Virus record (IMG/VR): IMGVR_UViG_2684623127_000002
Strand: one strand, 5' to 3'
DNA length: 64,000 bases
Origin: a virus
Lineage: Duplodnaviria; Heunggongvirae; Uroviricota; Caudoviricetes
The position numbers were made by a program. Shown piece after piece: positions 30,001 to 36,000 of the stretch. Every line of letters begins with the position of its first letter. Positions within the stretch are counted from its first letter, which is position 1.

Positions 30001-33000
30001 CTGACCGCTGGGCGGGTGCGGATTTCTGGGAGCAGCAGGGCAGGCGCGTCAGCCTGGACGATATCCTGCAGCGCGCTGATGTGGTGACGGTGGGGATTGA
30101 CGGCGGGGGCCTGGATGATCTGCTGGGAATGTACGTGATTGGCCGTGACAGGGAAACCCGCGAATGGCTGGGCTGGGGCCATGCCTGGGCGCATGAAACC
30201 GCGGTGGTCCGACGGAAGAGCGAGGCGTCCCGGTTTCAGGATCTTGTTGCCTGTGGAGATATGACCATTGTCCGGCGTGTCGGGGATGACACGGCGGAAG
30301 TGGCGGAATATGTGCGTCGCATTCATGAGGCTGAGTTACTGGACCATATCGGTATTGACCCGTCAGGGGTGGGGCAGATTCTGGATTCACTGGCGGAAGC
30401 CGGGATCCCCGACGGAATTGTGGTGGGGATAAGCCAGGGCTGGAAACTGGGCGGGGCCATTAAAACCACCGAGCGCAAACTGGCTGAAGGGGTGCTGGTG
30501 CATGGTGACCAGCCCCTGATGGCCTGGTGTGTCGGCAATGCCCGGGTGGAGCCTAAAGGTAACGCCATTCTTATCACCAAACAGGCCAGTGGACGGGGAA
30601 AAATTGACCCGCTGATGGCGCTGTTCAATGCGGTCTCCCTGATGTCCCTTAACCCGGAACCGAAAAAGAAAGAATATGCGGTTTTTTTCATATAACCCTG
30701 TTCACACTGTAACCATCATGAACCGCTGCGGCGGTTTTTTTATTTTCAGGAGGCTGATGTGACTCTTAAACGGGCCTGTTCCCTGCTGACGGTGAAATCC
30801 TTCAGTGAGGATGAACGGGTGATCACCGGGATTGCGTCAACGCCTTCTCCGGATCGGGATGGTGACATCCTGGAGCCGGAGGGCGCGGAGTTTGGCAGTG
30901 CGATCCCGTTTCTCTGGCAGCATGACCATTCCCGCCCGGTGGGGCAGTGTACGGTGCGCCGGGTCAGCGAAGGGCTGGAAATCACGGCAACACTGGTGAA
31001 GCCCGTACCGGATATGCCGTCGCAACTGGCTGCCCGGCTGGATGAGGTCTGGGCGGCCATTAAGACCGGGCTGGTCAGGGGGCTGTCCGTGGGCTTCCGT
31101 CCCCATGAATACACCTTTCTGGACGGAGGCGGACTGCATTTTCTGCGCTGGGAACTGATGGAGGTGTCTGCCGTCACCGTGCCCGCGAATGCGGAATGCA
31201 CCATCCGGACCATTAAATCTTACGACCGCCCGTTTTCTGCCGCGTCCGGCAACCGGAAACCGGTGGTGAAAATCGCATCTTCTGCCGGCGCTGCGGCACA
31301 GTCAACAACCGTTTTTCATAAGGAAAAGACCATAATGAATATTGGCGAACAGATTAAAAGTTTTGAAAACAAGCGTGCAGCGCTGGCAGCCTCCCTTGAG
31401 GAGGTCATGACCAAAGCCGCAGAGGAAGGGCGCACGCTGGATGTGGAGGAGGAAGAGCATTACGACAACACCGCAGCGGAAATCCGTCAGGTGGATGCGC
31501 ACCTGAAGCGCCTGCGTGAACTGGAAGCCGGTAAGGCCGCCACGGCGCAGCCGGTGAAACAGGCCGGTAACGGGAATGTGGCCGCGGTGGCTTCTGCGCC
31601 GGTGATCCGTGTGGAGCAGAAACTGGATAAGGGGATTGGCTTCGCCCGCTTTGCCAAATCGCTGGCTGCGGCTAAAGGCGTCCGATCTGAAGCCCTGGAA
31701 GTGGCCCGTCGTCAGTATCCGGATGACAGTCGTCTGCATCATGTCCTGAAATCGGCAGTGGGCGCGGGGACCACCACGGATCCGCAGTGGGCAGGCAGCC
31801 TGTCTGAATATCAGGAATACGCACAGGACTTTATTGATTACCTGCGTCCGCAGACCATTATCGGGCGATTTGGTCAGGGCGGGATCCCTGCACTTCGTCA
31901 GGTGCCATTCAATATCCGTGTGCACGCCCAGGTGTCCGGCGGTGCTGCCGGCTGGGTGGGTGAGGGTAAGGCAAAACCCCTGACGAAGTTTGATTTTGAA
32001 TCCATCACCTTCAGTCATGCGAAGGTGTCGGCCATTGCGGTACTGACGGAAGAATTGATCCGTTTTTCCAGTCCGGCTGCTGATGCACTGGTCCGTAATG
32101 CGCTGGCGGAAGCGGTGGTGGCGCGTCTGGATACAGACTTTGTGGACCCGAAAAAAGCCGCAGTGGCAGATGTCTCCCCGGCGTCCATCACCCATGATGT
32201 GAAGGGCACGGCATCAACCGGTAACCCGGATGCGGATGCCGAGGCTGCGTTTGGACAGTTTGTGGCAGCAAACCTGCAGCCCACCGGTGCGGTCTGGCTG
32301 ATGTCCAGCACCAATGCCCTGGCACTGTCCATGCGTAAAAATGCGCTGGGTCAGAAGGAATACCCGGACATGACCCTGCTGGGTGGCTCCTTCCAGGGGC
32401 TGCCGGTGATTGTCTCCCAGTACGTGGGTGACCAGCTGGTGCTGGTGAATGCCCCGGATATTTATCTGGCGGATGACGGCGGCGTGGCAGTGGATATGTC
32501 CCGCGAGGCATCACTGGAAATGCAGTCTGAGCCGGGCGGCGACAGTACCACGCCGTCCCCGGTGGAGCTGGTTTCCATGTTCCAGACAGGCAGCGTGGCC
32601 ATCCGTGCGGAGCGCTGGATCAACTGGCGTCGTCGCCGTACTGCGGCGGTGGCGGTGATCACCGGAGTGAACTACGGCAGTGCGTCCGGCGGCTGAGTCT
32701 GATAAGGAGGACGGGAGGCGTGCGCCTCCCGTAACAGGTTATGGCAAAGATCCGATATCTGCAGGGCACGCATGATGCCCGGGCCGGGGATATCCGTGAT
32801 GTGGCACAGCCGTGTGCGGAGGTGCTGGTTCGCCTGGGAAAGGCGGAGTACATCACGGTGCGACGTCCGGCAGGTCAGAAAAAGAAACGTGATGCGGAGC
32901 ATGGCGAATGTGGAACCTTTTACGGCGAACCCGAAAAAACCAGAAATCAGGACGTGACGTAAGAGAGGCGGGCTGGACCAGCCTGTTTCAGGCGGTGGCT

Positions 33001-36000
33001 GAGCCCTTTTCCGGCGCCTGGCAGCAGGGCGTGAAAGCCGATCCTGAAGCCGTCCTCTCCTTTCATGCGGTGTTTGCATGTATTTCGCTGATATCCCAGG
33101 ATATCGCCAAAATGCGGCTGCGTCTTATGCAGACGGATGCGCATGGGATACGCAGGGAAACGCGCCGGGGGGATATTGCCCGCCTCTGTCGTCGTCCCAA
33201 CGCCCAGCAGAACCGCATCCAGTTTTTTGAACTGTGGCTGAACGCCAAACTGCGTCATGGCAATACGGTGGTGCTGAAAATCCGTAATGCCCGGGGGCAG
33301 ATCAAAGAACTGCGTATTCTGGACTGGAGCCGGGTTGAACCTCTGGTGGCGGATGACGGCGAGGTGTTCTACCGCATCACGCCGGACCGGAACTGCGGGA
33401 TCACGGAGGCGGTGACGGTGCCTGCCCGGGAAGTGATCCACGACCGGTTTAACTGTTTTTTTCATCCGCTTATAGGATTGCCGCCGGTGTATGCCGCCGG
33501 GCTGGCGGCCACGCAGGGGCATCATATTCAGGAAAATTCGACGTCTTTTTTCAGAAATGGCGGCAGGCCGTCCGGGGTGATTGAGATCCCCGGCAGTATT
33601 ACGGAAGAAAATGCGAAAAAACTGAAGAGCAACTGGGACAGCGGGTATACAGGCGAAAATGCGGGGAAAACGGCCATTCTGAGCAACGGGGCAAAATACA
33701 ACCCCACGACGTTTTCACCGGTGGATGCGCAGACGGTGGAACAACTGAAGATGACCGCTGAAATTGTCTGTTCGGTGTTCCGTGTCCCGGCCTACAAGAT
33801 TGGCGTGGGACAACCGCCTTCCAGTGACAACGTGGAGGCGCTGGAGCAGCAGTATTATTCCCAGTGCCTGCAGACGCTGATTGAGTCCATTGAACTGTTA
33901 CTGGATGAGGCGCTGGAAACGGGGGAAAACGAGAGTACAGAATTTGATGTCACCACGCTGCTGAGAATGGACAGTGAGCGGCGCATGAAAACGCTGGGGG
34001 ATGCGGTGAAAAATACGCTTCTCACGCCCAATGAGGCCCGTAAACGGGAGAACCTGCCGCCCCTGGCCGGCGGTGATGCACTGTATCTTCAGCAGCAGAA
34101 CTACAGTCTGGAGGCGCTGTCCCGTCGTGATGCCCGTGAGGATCCGTTCGCGTCTGCCGGGAAAACAGTTTCATCACAGCTGCCTGACGGCGCATCTGAC
34201 GGTAATAAGGCAATCAGTGAAACAGAGCATGATGCGGTGAAAGCGATGTTCAGGGGGGATACTGAGAAAATGACGGAACGGGAACTGTCCATTATTCGTG
34301 CACTGGGAGAAGAATTTTCCACAGTGCTGGCGGATTTACAGCGCACATTTGAGGGGAAGATGGCCTCGCAGGCACAAGCGTTTGAAGAGAAACTGACTTC
34401 CCTGTCGGCGGTATTACAGAAGCATGTGACGGTGGATGAGGTGCGTCCGGTTCTGCAGGCGATGGTGGATGACGCTGTGGGGGCCATTCCGGTACCGCGT
34501 GATGGTCGTGATTATGATCCGGATGTACTGCAGCAGGCGGTGAATGATGCGGTCGCAAATATTCCGCAGCCGGCGGACGGTAAAAGTCTCACCCCGGATG
34601 ATGTGCGTCCGATGCTTGAACAGATGGTGAAGGAGGCTGTAAGCCATATCCCTGTTCCGCGTGATGGTCGTGACTACGATCCGGAAGTACTGCAGAAGGC
34701 GGTGAATGATGCGGTCGCAAATATTCCGCAGCCGGCGGACGGTAAAAGTCTCACCCCGGATGATGTGCATCCGATGCTTGAACAGATGGTGAAGGAGGCG
34801 GTAAGCCATATTCCTGTTCCGCGTGATGGTCGTGACTACGATCCGGATGTTCTGCAGAAGGCGGTGAATGATGCGGTCGCGAAAATACCGGTACCGGCAG
34901 ACGGTAAAAGTATCACTCCGGATGATGTGCATCCGATGCTTGAACAGATGGTGAAGGAGGCGGTAAGCCATATTCCTGTTCCGCGTGATGGTCGTGACTA
35001 CGATCCGGATGTTCTGCAGAAGGCGGTTCTGGAGGCGGTGAGTGCCCTGCCGGCTCCGCAGGACGGGCGTGATGCCACGGCACTGGAAATACTCCCCGCC
35101 ATTGACGATCAAAAATCCTTTCCCCGGGGCTCGTATGCCACACACCAGGGTGGACTCTGGCGGGCGTATGAAAAAACGTACGGGATGCGGGGATGGGAAT
35201 GCCTGGTTGACGGGGTGGCGGATATTGACGTCAGCATGACGGGTGAACGGTCGTTCTCTGTGGTGGTCCGGCAGAGCAGTGGCCAGCGTACGGAAAAAAC
35301 ATTTTCCCTGCCGGTGATGCTCTACCGTGGTGTGTTCAGAATCGGCGAAACTTACCACCCCGGCGATACGGTGACGTGGGGGGCTCGTTGTGGCACTGCA
35401 ACAGTATGACCGGTGATAAGCCCGGAGAAGCTCATTCATCAGGCTGGACTCTGGCTGCAAAACGTGGGCGGGATGCAGGAGGTGGAAAGTGACAGCATTA
35501 CTGACACTGGAAGAAATCAAGGCACATCTGCGTGTTGACCATGACGCGGATGATGAGATGCTGATGGACAAGGTTCGTCAGGCTACCGCCGTGCTGCTGG
35601 CCTACATCCAGGGCAGCCGGGATAAGGTGATTAGTGAGGACGGTGAGCTGATCCCTGGTGAGGCATTAACCCGGATGAAGGGGGCTGCCATGCGACTGAC
35701 CGGGATGCTGTACCGGAATCCGGATCTTGCGGAGCGGGAAGACCTCGTGCAGGGGGAACTGCCGTTTTCTGTTTCCGTGCTGATTTACGATTTGCGTTGT
35801 CCGACGGTGTTATGAGGAGGGGGAATGGCAATATCTGCAGGTCGTCTGACACAGATGATCAGTGTTCTGAACCCGGTGTTAACCCGTAATGCTGCCGGAG
35901 AAATGACGGAAGAATGGGTGTCATGCGGGAAAATTCATGCGGATATCCGGGGCAGGAGCAGCCGGGAGCGGATGCAGTCCGGTGCGGAAATGGCGCAGGC

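Follow-up and report, generated by a model that had tools for sequence, protein, structure and literature searches.

Gene content and order of the head module

In this study, we examined the head-morphogenesis module in a stretch of 64,000 nucleotides of viral DNA (IMG/VR record IMGVR_UViG_2684623127_000002, class Caudoviricetes), referred to here as the window. Genes were assigned from a map of open reading frames (ORFs) together with Pfam, PHROG and NCBIfam profile scans. The module contains the following genes.

28474-29037, plus strand: terminase small subunit (TerS), 187 amino acids (aa); PF03592; phrog_641, E=8e-68
29034-30695, plus strand: terminase large subunit (TerL), 553 aa; PF03354 and PF20441; phrog_9, E=2e-145
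30759-32696, plus strand: protease-major capsid protein (MCP) ORF, 645 aa, GTG start; Peptidase_S78 and PF05065; phrog_617
32741-32962, plus strand: orf73, 73 aa, between capsid and portal; phrog_829, E=4e-39; no Pfam match
32908-35409, plus strand: 833-aa ORF with an HK97-family portal at its N-terminus; PF04860
35489-35815, plus strand: head-tail adaptor Ad1 (gp6-like), the next gene of the module; PF05135; phrog_40, E=3e-30

The ORF map placed the TerL, protease-MCP and 833-aa ORFs at the coordinates given in a preliminary description of this DNA, and the profile scans confirmed the order that it had reported, TerL, then protease-capsid, then portal. Downstream of Ad1 lie Hc1, an HK97-gp10-like protein, the tail terminator and the major tail protein. 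The order in the window is therefore TerL, protease-MCP, orf73 and portal, and the canonical position of a portal gene between terL and the protease is not occupied. In the HK97 reference record, the order is terS-terL-portal-protease-MCP with three separate head genes, and the same order is given for HK97 and D3 (PMC12749128, Fig. 1 legend). The portal thus follows the capsid, unlike in the usual HK97-type order, as had been claimed. We initially expected that portal and capsid had been swapped in the preliminary description, and this was ruled out by the hidden Markov model assignments.

The same description had suggested that the order may be normal for the phage lineage and that synteny with relatives should be compared. 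One genome per species was scanned with an alignment of fusion-protein homologues, which yielded 28 loci with 47-80% identity from Enterobacterales, Proteus, Arsenophonus, Rhizobium, Methylobacterium, Haematobacter, Brucella, Dichotomicrobium and Diaphorobacter. Module copies in an Arsenophonus endosymbiont (L030), Proteus mirabilis (L021) and Enterobacter bugandensis (L006) carry several internal frameshifts in TerL, protease or portal and are decaying prophage remnants. A tblastn map of 27 loci, which span Gamma-, Alpha- and Betaproteobacteria, showed TerL, protease, MCP, portal and Ad1 in the window order in every flanked locus. These loci range from E. coli through Rhizobium and Brucella to Diaphorobacter. 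The order was also found in the isolated phages Pseudomonas vB_PaS_IME307 (IME307), Burkholderia vB_FUBS1 and Moraxella Mcat7. Because the order is kept in all mapped loci and in isolated phages, the permuted arrangement is long established and stable throughout a large lineage, for which it is normal, and is not a local rearrangement. The module belongs to a lineage of HK97-like siphophage heads that is widespread in Proteobacteria, in which the protease-MCP cassette directly follows TerL, and the portal, usually together with a gene here called X, precedes the adaptor.

We also determined the source of the module. The 6.9-kb head block is 100% identical to that of the Shiga toxin 2c (Stx2c) prophage of E. 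coli O157:H7 NE122 (NZ_CP038319), and the full window maps onto this prophage and its right flank, with dacD/sbmC past the right end. Enterobacteria phage 2851 (Pankowvirus; FM180578 / NC_049943) shares 99.5% nucleotide identity over the 6.9 kb of TerS-TerL-fusion-portal. The stx2c A and B genes lie at 20237-21477, upstream of the lysis and head genes, as in a phage 2851-type Stx2c prophage. The head block was present in 1257 of 5426 complete E. coli genomes, about a quarter, and often in several copies (median 5 places per genome). GenBank records of the phage 2851 group list 'major head protein/prohead protease' and then 'portal protein', and phages 2851, YYZ-2008, 1717, BP-4795 and JLK-2012, which are lambdoid Stx1, Stx2 and non-Stx O157:H7 prophages, share the gene order and annotation of the window. 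The head module is therefore known and ordinary, already annotated in GenBank, and standard for long-tailed Stx and other lambdoid prophages of enterohaemorrhagic E. coli.

The 645-aa ORF and its candidate internal start

The preliminary description had placed the protease and capsid domains in one 645-aa ORF. The parts of this ORF are listed below.

30759-31238, plus strand: prohead protease domain, S78 family, aa 1 to ~160; 29% identity to HK97 gp4, E=4e-9
31239-31334, plus strand: hypervariable, indel-rich linker, aa ~161-192 (alignment; AlphaFold2 confidence), with a putative internal ribosome-binding site (RBS), AAGGAA, at 31320-31325
31335-32696, plus strand: predicted nested capsid gene, from ATG (M193) to the stop; predicted 453-aa MCP precursor with a delta-like region at aa 195-261

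Profile matches bore out the presence of both domains. Peptidase_S78 (PF04586) matched aa 48-152 with 34.7 bits (cutoff 21), Phage_capsid (PF05065) matched aa 386-635 with 52.7 bits (cutoff 24.2), and TIGR01554 matched aa 204-584 with 78.3 bits (cutoff 27.5). The profile phrog_617, 'major head protein', covered the ORF end to end (E=3e-261). The stricter equivalog TIGR01543 scored 46.4 bits, under its cutoff of 59. Since PF04586 was above its cutoff and TIGR01543 below, the protease domain is a member of the S78 family but not an HK97 gp4 equivalog. The catalytic residues of HK97 gp4 are S114 and H65. In BLASTP, S110 of the window ORF aligned with gp4 S114, and H55 lay one column off gp4 H65; H55, S110 and E135 were invariant in an alignment of 15 homologues. 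The catalytic Ser and His are thus conserved in the protease domain. More than 2400 homologues of the fusion protein were found, and the best 120 were nearly all ~645 aa long. Identity was 73-78% across Enterobacterales and ~48% over the full length in Alphaproteobacteria.

In the 15-sequence alignment, the protease part and the capsid part were highly conserved on either side of the linker, and Met193 was invariant directly after it. The AlphaFold2 model of the fusion protein contained helices at aa 195-222 and 229-261, with a predicted local distance difference test (pLDDT) score of ~77, and a disordered segment at aa 140-193 (pLDDT ~23). The TIGR01554 match starts at aa 204, and the helices of aa 195-261 may correspond to the delta-like scaffold region.

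We then compared the region upstream of M193 among the fused loci. A motif resembling a Shine-Dalgarno (SD) sequence was located 6-11 nt upstream of an in-frame ATG in 25 of 25 fused loci, with TTG in L024. The motif varied among AAGGA, AAAGGA and GAGG, and was a perfect AAGGAGG (-11.9 kcal/mol) in L026. It was encoded by differing residues, namely KG, KE, QEV and PED. By the same energy measure, equal scores were reached at ~11% of in-frame positions and at 37 of 298 other internal ATGs. A conserved internal start with its own RBS, as expected of a nested in-frame gene pair, was thus found in every fused locus against a per-site chance rate of ~11%. Protease and MCP were separate genes in two further loci, and both break at the linker junction: in L031 the stop and start overlap as ATGA, and in L032 the junction reads TAATGGAGG-N5-ATG. 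Protease and MCP are also annotated as separate genes in vB_FUBS1 and Mcat7. As the SD motif and the in-frame start M193 were kept in all 25 loci and unfused relatives exist, these results suggest that two products arise from one ORF, a protease-MCP protein and MCP alone. The 'fusion' would then represent the loss of the protease stop codon from a locus in which the MCP gene kept its own start, leaving a nested ORF.

The protease-MCP cassette is flanked by two hairpins.

30720-30737, plus strand: terminator-like GC hairpin with a T-run, between TerL and the capsid ORF (consensus scan)
32711-32732, plus strand: 9-bp GC stem-loop right after the capsid stop (fold -18.9 kcal/mol)

A stem-loop of differing sequence was present at the post-MCP position in 23 of 25 related loci, in some of them with a U-run. 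In HK97, putative terminators are annotated just before the protease gene and after gp5. Because the hairpins of the window occupy positions equivalent to these gp4-gp5 terminators, the cassette is bracketed alike in the two phages, and the difference lies on the portal side. On that side, orf73 overlaps the portal start by 55 nt and was detected by tblastn in enterobacterial loci. A small ORF at the position of orf73 was also seen in IME307, vB_FUBS1 and Mcat7.

The 833-aa ORF as a composite of portal and gene X

The features within and just beyond the 833-aa ORF are as follows.

32908-34269, plus strand: portal proper, aa 1-454, HK97 family; PF04860, E=6e-81; 27% identity to HK97 gp3, E=1e-24
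34253-34258, plus strand: G-run 1 (G6), the putative SD of gene X; the added G joins the portal to the reading frame of X
34270-35383, plus strand: putative gene X, in-frame part, with its own ATG at 34270; coiled coil, helix-loop repeats and the start of a conserved C-terminal domain
34486-35027, plus strand: 3.3 tandem copies of a 162-bp (54-aa) repeat in X (Tandem Repeats Finder score 944, 94% matches)
35378-35383, plus strand: G-run 2 (G6; G7 in intact alleles), a frameshift that ends the ORF at 35409
35385-35492, plus strand: out-of-frame remnant of the X C-terminus (translation), SLWHCNSMTGDKPGEAHSSGWTLAAKRGRDAGGGK and then a stop, with a tip resembling carbohydrate-binding module (CBM) family 5/12 (Pfam CBM_5_12, E=4e-4)

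The preliminary description had identified the whole 833-aa ORF as the portal, an assignment that reassignment by profile would have overturned. No such reassignment occurred for the N-terminal ~454 aa. Phage_portal (PF04860) matched aa 54-382 with 272.5 bits (cutoff 39.1), and TIGR01537 scored 349.5 bits (cutoff 112) on the intact phage 2851 allele. HK97 gp3, a portal of 424 aa, aligned to aa 47-397, and the PDB portals 9lbn, 8cez and 6tba matched only aa 43-420. An HK97-family portal of ~424 aa is therefore covered at full length by the N-terminal part. The portal assignment did not hold for aa 455-833, which appear to belong to the separate gene X.

In the loci of other genera, portal ORFs were 441-491 aa long, save for two internally frameshifted copies, and the next gene, X, started at or overlapped the portal stop in 23 of 23, typically as AAATGA. 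The SD of X, 11 nt upstream of its ATG, was AGAGGA in relatives and AGGGGG(G) in E. coli. JLK-2012 has G5 at run 1 and two annotated ORFs that overlap by ATGA, a portal of 450 aa and an X of 407 aa. The window and phage 2851 have G6 at this run, by which the portal is shifted into the X frame. Because portals of other genera end after about 450 codons at a separate X start, the 833-aa ORF appears to consist of portal and X, fused by a G5-to-G6 change at run 1 and truncated by a G7-to-G6 change at run 2. Both alleles of run 1 were common.

Run 1, G6 (fused): 37 IMG/VR contigs; 1366 places in complete E. coli genomes; 781 genomes
Run 1, G5 (two genes): 23 IMG/VR contigs; 912 places in complete E. 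coli genomes; 486 genomes

The Prokaryotic Genome Annotation Pipeline (PGAP) treats the G6 allele as intact (859 aa, WP_012817878) and the G5 allele as 'frameshifted'; NZ_CP042903 (L165) and NZ_AP018802 (L166) are related records for this labelling of the two alleles. It labels the portal locus of the window 'frameshifted' as well. The comparison with other genera suggests the reverse polarity, with the two-gene G5 form ancestral and the G6 fusion derived. Some 900 portal loci that RefSeq/PGAP calls 'frameshifted' in complete E. coli genomes may accordingly be undamaged pairs of genes, and the use of the 859-aa 'portal' as a reference could bias the count of Stx prophages regarded as defective.

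At run 2, phage 2851 and JLK-2012 have G7, which gives an ORF of 859 codons in phage 2851; the window copy has G6 and 833 codons, and its ORF ends at 35409 instead of about 35492. Exact-pattern scans of IMG/VR found 107 G7 and 7 G6 alleles. In complete E. coli genomes, G6 occurred at 586 places in 332 genomes. Megablast queries of 41 nt for G7 gave no match in E. coli genomes, which was attributed to low-complexity masking and not to absence, and the IMG/VR scans replaced E. coli megablast for the run 2 allele counts.

In the E. coli ORF, gene X makes up aa 455-859. The X proteins of relatives are 194-556 aa long and begin MNERELSLIKALGEEF. Alignment and AlphaFold2 indicated an N-terminal helix of ~50 residues, a repeat region and a conserved, beta-rich C-terminal domain of ~120 aa. 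The repeats are a variable number of 27/54-aa units, each a helix plus 'IPxPxDG(K/R)', and alphaproteobacterial homologues carry collagen-like G-X-Y runs. Our first homologue search, with the C-terminal part of the portal ORF, yielded nothing but incomplete E. coli proteins, which were interrupted at the repeats. The tandem repeat appears to break short-read assemblies, as hundreds of 'partial portal' fragments (540-650 aa) end or start near it. The last 35 residues of X (SLWHCNS...KRGRDAGGGK) can be read in the +1 frame, are conserved in all X homologues, and are lost from the window ORF. PF02839 is precomputed on several X homologues. Foldseek with the X model gave local chitin-binding matches of 42-43 columns (2d49, root-mean-square deviation 1.5 A; 1e15_B, 1.1 A) at a global E>0.3, and no match to the PDB at E<=0.001. 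An X profile searched against PDB sequences matched nothing but helical look-alikes of low complexity, apolipoproteins among them.

Standalone X proteins of 347-405 aa were common, and the family of the C-terminal domain comprised 1680 cluster representatives at E<=1e-3, nearly all standalone and 200-660 aa long. Databases name these proteins variously 'gp6-like head-tail connector', 'portal protein', 'carbohydrate binding domain' and 'FIVAR'. Gene X thus defines a large uncharacterised family of virion-module proteins under misleading names such as 'portal' and 'gp6-like connector'. It is absent from vB_FUBS1 and Mcat7. With low confidence, we propose that X is an accessory fibrous decoration of the head or neck, probably trimeric, with a glycan-binding tip. 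Alternatively, X may be an internal portal-associated protein.

Comparison with known head modules

The module resembles that of HK97 in its S78 protease, its HK97-family portal, and its PF05065/TIGR01554 capsid, for which an N-terminal helical, scaffold-like region is predicted here. Neither phage has a separate scaffold gene, hairpins bracket protease and MCP in both, and the Ad1-Hc1-gp10-tail terminator series follows downstream. In HK97, however, portal, protease and MCP are three genes in that order, whereas in the window the portal comes after the MCP, and protease and MCP share an ORF. The MCP is also too diverged from that of HK97 for pairwise alignment, and X and orf73 lack counterparts there. 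Phage D3 was considered as a structural model and rejected, since it has the HK97 order and separate genes (PMC12749128).

Nested in-frame protease and scaffold genes occur in lambda (C/Nu3) and in herpesviruses (UL26/UL26.5), in which the shared C-terminal part carries the protease into the procapsid. The 645-aa ORF is similar to these in having an N-terminal protease and an internal in-frame start, from which a shorter product with an identical C-terminus is predicted. It differs in that the shared part is a scaffold in those systems and would be the coat protein itself, with its delta-like region, here. Protease-MCP fusions as such are already recognised, in the NCBIfam model NF045541 (prohead protease/MCP fusion) and in actinophage 'capsid and protease fusion' proteins. 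These are domain fusions of the same kind without a close sequence relationship to the window ORF, which matched NF045541 over aa 48-287 only, with 54 bits against a cutoff of 525. In descriptions of the actinophages with such fusions, the portal precedes the capsid genes, and the window has it after them.

IME307, Rhizobium phage RHph_X2_26, vB_FUBS1 and the Moraxella phages Mcat are isolated phages with the same TerL-protease/MCP-small ORF-portal order, in which identity to the fusion protein of the window is 35-48%. IME307 has a fused protease-MCP, but its portal (461 aa) and X (334 aa) are separate. In vB_FUBS1 and Mcat7, protease and MCP are separate and X is lacking. IME307 is classified in the genus Detrevirus, presumably the genus of D3, which was the reason for considering D3 as a model. 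In the searchable literature, we found no specific description of the fusion, of its internal start or of the polymorphism of portal and X. The last two of these, the start with its conserved RBS and the polymorphism, are modest, testable additions to what is known of this module.

Proposed expression of the module and alternative explanations

Taken together, it is probable that the region is the head-morphogenesis module of a phage 2851-type Stx2c prophage, with an order normal for its lineage, a nested 645-aa ORF and a composite portal-X ORF. For its expression, we propose that ribosomes starting at 30759 would produce a protease-linker-delta-MCP polypeptide, which would co-assemble into the prohead via its capsid domain. 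The protease would thus be delivered by covalent attachment and not by a targeting tail. Most of the MCP precursor would come from initiation at the internal RBS and ATG (31335) that the ORF has retained, and after assembly the protease would remove itself, the linker and the delta-like helices. The post-MCP stem-loop would keep capsid mRNA abundant relative to the downstream portal genes, whose products are needed in low copy. The internal capsid start, if real, would explain how protease stoichiometry is set in the lineage. The full combination, in which the coat protein of a two-product ORF serves as the vehicle of the protease and G-run 1 acts as a recurrent, heritable switch between a free and a portal-tethered carbohydrate-binding fibre, seems to us quite unlikely; if true, the G-run 1 switch would change virion composition.

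Several observations weigh against the main interpretation of the module. The related loci are not phylogenetically independent, and internal initiation at M193 is argued from conservation. The SD strength is moderate, -5.3 to -6.2 kcal/mol in most loci, and linkers rich in Lys, Gly and Glu could yield purine-rich codons for other reasons. The MCP part showed no significant pairwise similarity to HK97 gp5 (E=0.31), which left the cleavage site and the K-N isopeptide cross-link residues of HK97 with no aligned counterpart, and the equivalence of the delta domain and of the cleavage site is putative. The AlphaFold2 model of the fusion protein, built from the 15-sequence alignment, had a mean pLDDT of 40 and left the capsid domain unmodelled, and that of X, from a 33-sequence alignment, reached a pLDDT of 55, too poor for a global fold. 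The post-MCP hairpin was not exceptional against shuffled sequences in this GC-rich stretch (z=-1.5). The resemblance of the last ~45 residues of X to CBM5/12 is below threshold, with 20.8 bits for PF02839 against a cutoff of 26.2 (E=4e-4). In addition, the fused portal-X is the majority allele in E. coli (1366 against 912 places) and the allele of phage 2851, which was reportedly isolated as an infectious phage; the fusion may therefore be functional rather than a lesion.

A possible, though doubtful, alternative for the capsid ORF is that the 645-aa (70-kDa) polypeptide is the sole product. The protease would then be present 1:1 with the capsid subunit and would excise itself together with linker and delta after assembly, and the purine-rich motif before M193 would be a by-product of a flexible linker rich in Lys, Gly and Glu. 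This would agree with the lack of any break in the ORF in 25 of 27 loci and in over 2000 homologues, and with the annotation of 'capsid and protease fusion' proteins in several clusters of actinobacteriophages. By a rough estimate, the prohead interior could hold 415 copies of the ~38-kDa N-terminal part. However, all 25 loci retain both the SD and its start codon although the encoded amino acids differ, and the two sit exactly at the real MCP RBS of the unfused relatives. The copy number argues in the same direction, since a prohead of HK97 or D3 is made with only ~60-90 copies of the protease (PMC12749128). We therefore favour two products from the 645-aa ORF as the reading that these data suggest.

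For the portal, the G6 allele at run 1 with G7 at run 2 could encode the true functional gene, an 859-aa portal-X whose extension is internal and attached to the portal, with the G5 allele as the pseudogene. PGAP calls the alleles in this way, G6 outnumbers G5 both in complete E. coli genomes and in IMG/VR, the 'portal' profile phrog_2271 spans 859 positions, and phage 2851 carries the allele. We nevertheless regard this as unlikely: in all 23 loci from other genera, portal and X are two genes, the stop of one overlapping the start of the other, and there is no G-run; X retains its own ATG and SD inside the fused ORF, X homologues are overwhelmingly standalone and missing from some relatives, and the HK97 portal is complete at 424 aa. 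A programmed role of the G-runs, as sites of ribosomal or transcriptional slippage or of phase variation that would give fused and unfused forms or turn a decoration on and off, is very unlikely. Both run 1 alleles are frequent (about 60:40), run 2 is also polymorphic, and the runs are located exactly at the gene junction and within the distal binding module. Yet they comprise only 5-7 nt, shorter than typical contingency tracts, and other genera have AGAGGA in place of the run. No downstream stimulatory structure was seen, although none was sought, and the median of 5 recombining module copies per E. coli O157 genome can spread ordinary mutations.

Other features of the prophage

The prophage copy in the window is probably defective, because IS1203 is inserted in cII and the gpL gene is split. 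Two copies of IS1203 (IS3 family) were found, at 1221-2434 and 9202-10415, and it is the second that interrupts the prophage cII. The gene for minor tail protein L is represented by two partial pseudogenes, at 42047-42773 and 42790-44385. Directly after the split L gene, an Arc-family repressor pair and the antirepressor Ant form a moron-like insertion within the tail gene cluster.

Three tRNA genes (Ile, Arg, Arg) are located at 19901-20144, upstream of the stx2c A and B genes, and nleG7 (~53030-53680), which encodes a type III effector, marks the right prophage end. An HNH endonuclease gene is located at 27816-28181, immediately upstream of terS; HNH genes are associated with HK97-like cos-type terminases. 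The major tail protein (36889-37734) has a C-terminal Ig-like domain with matches to Ig_2, I-set and Hoc-like PHROG profiles, which suggests a decorated tail tube.

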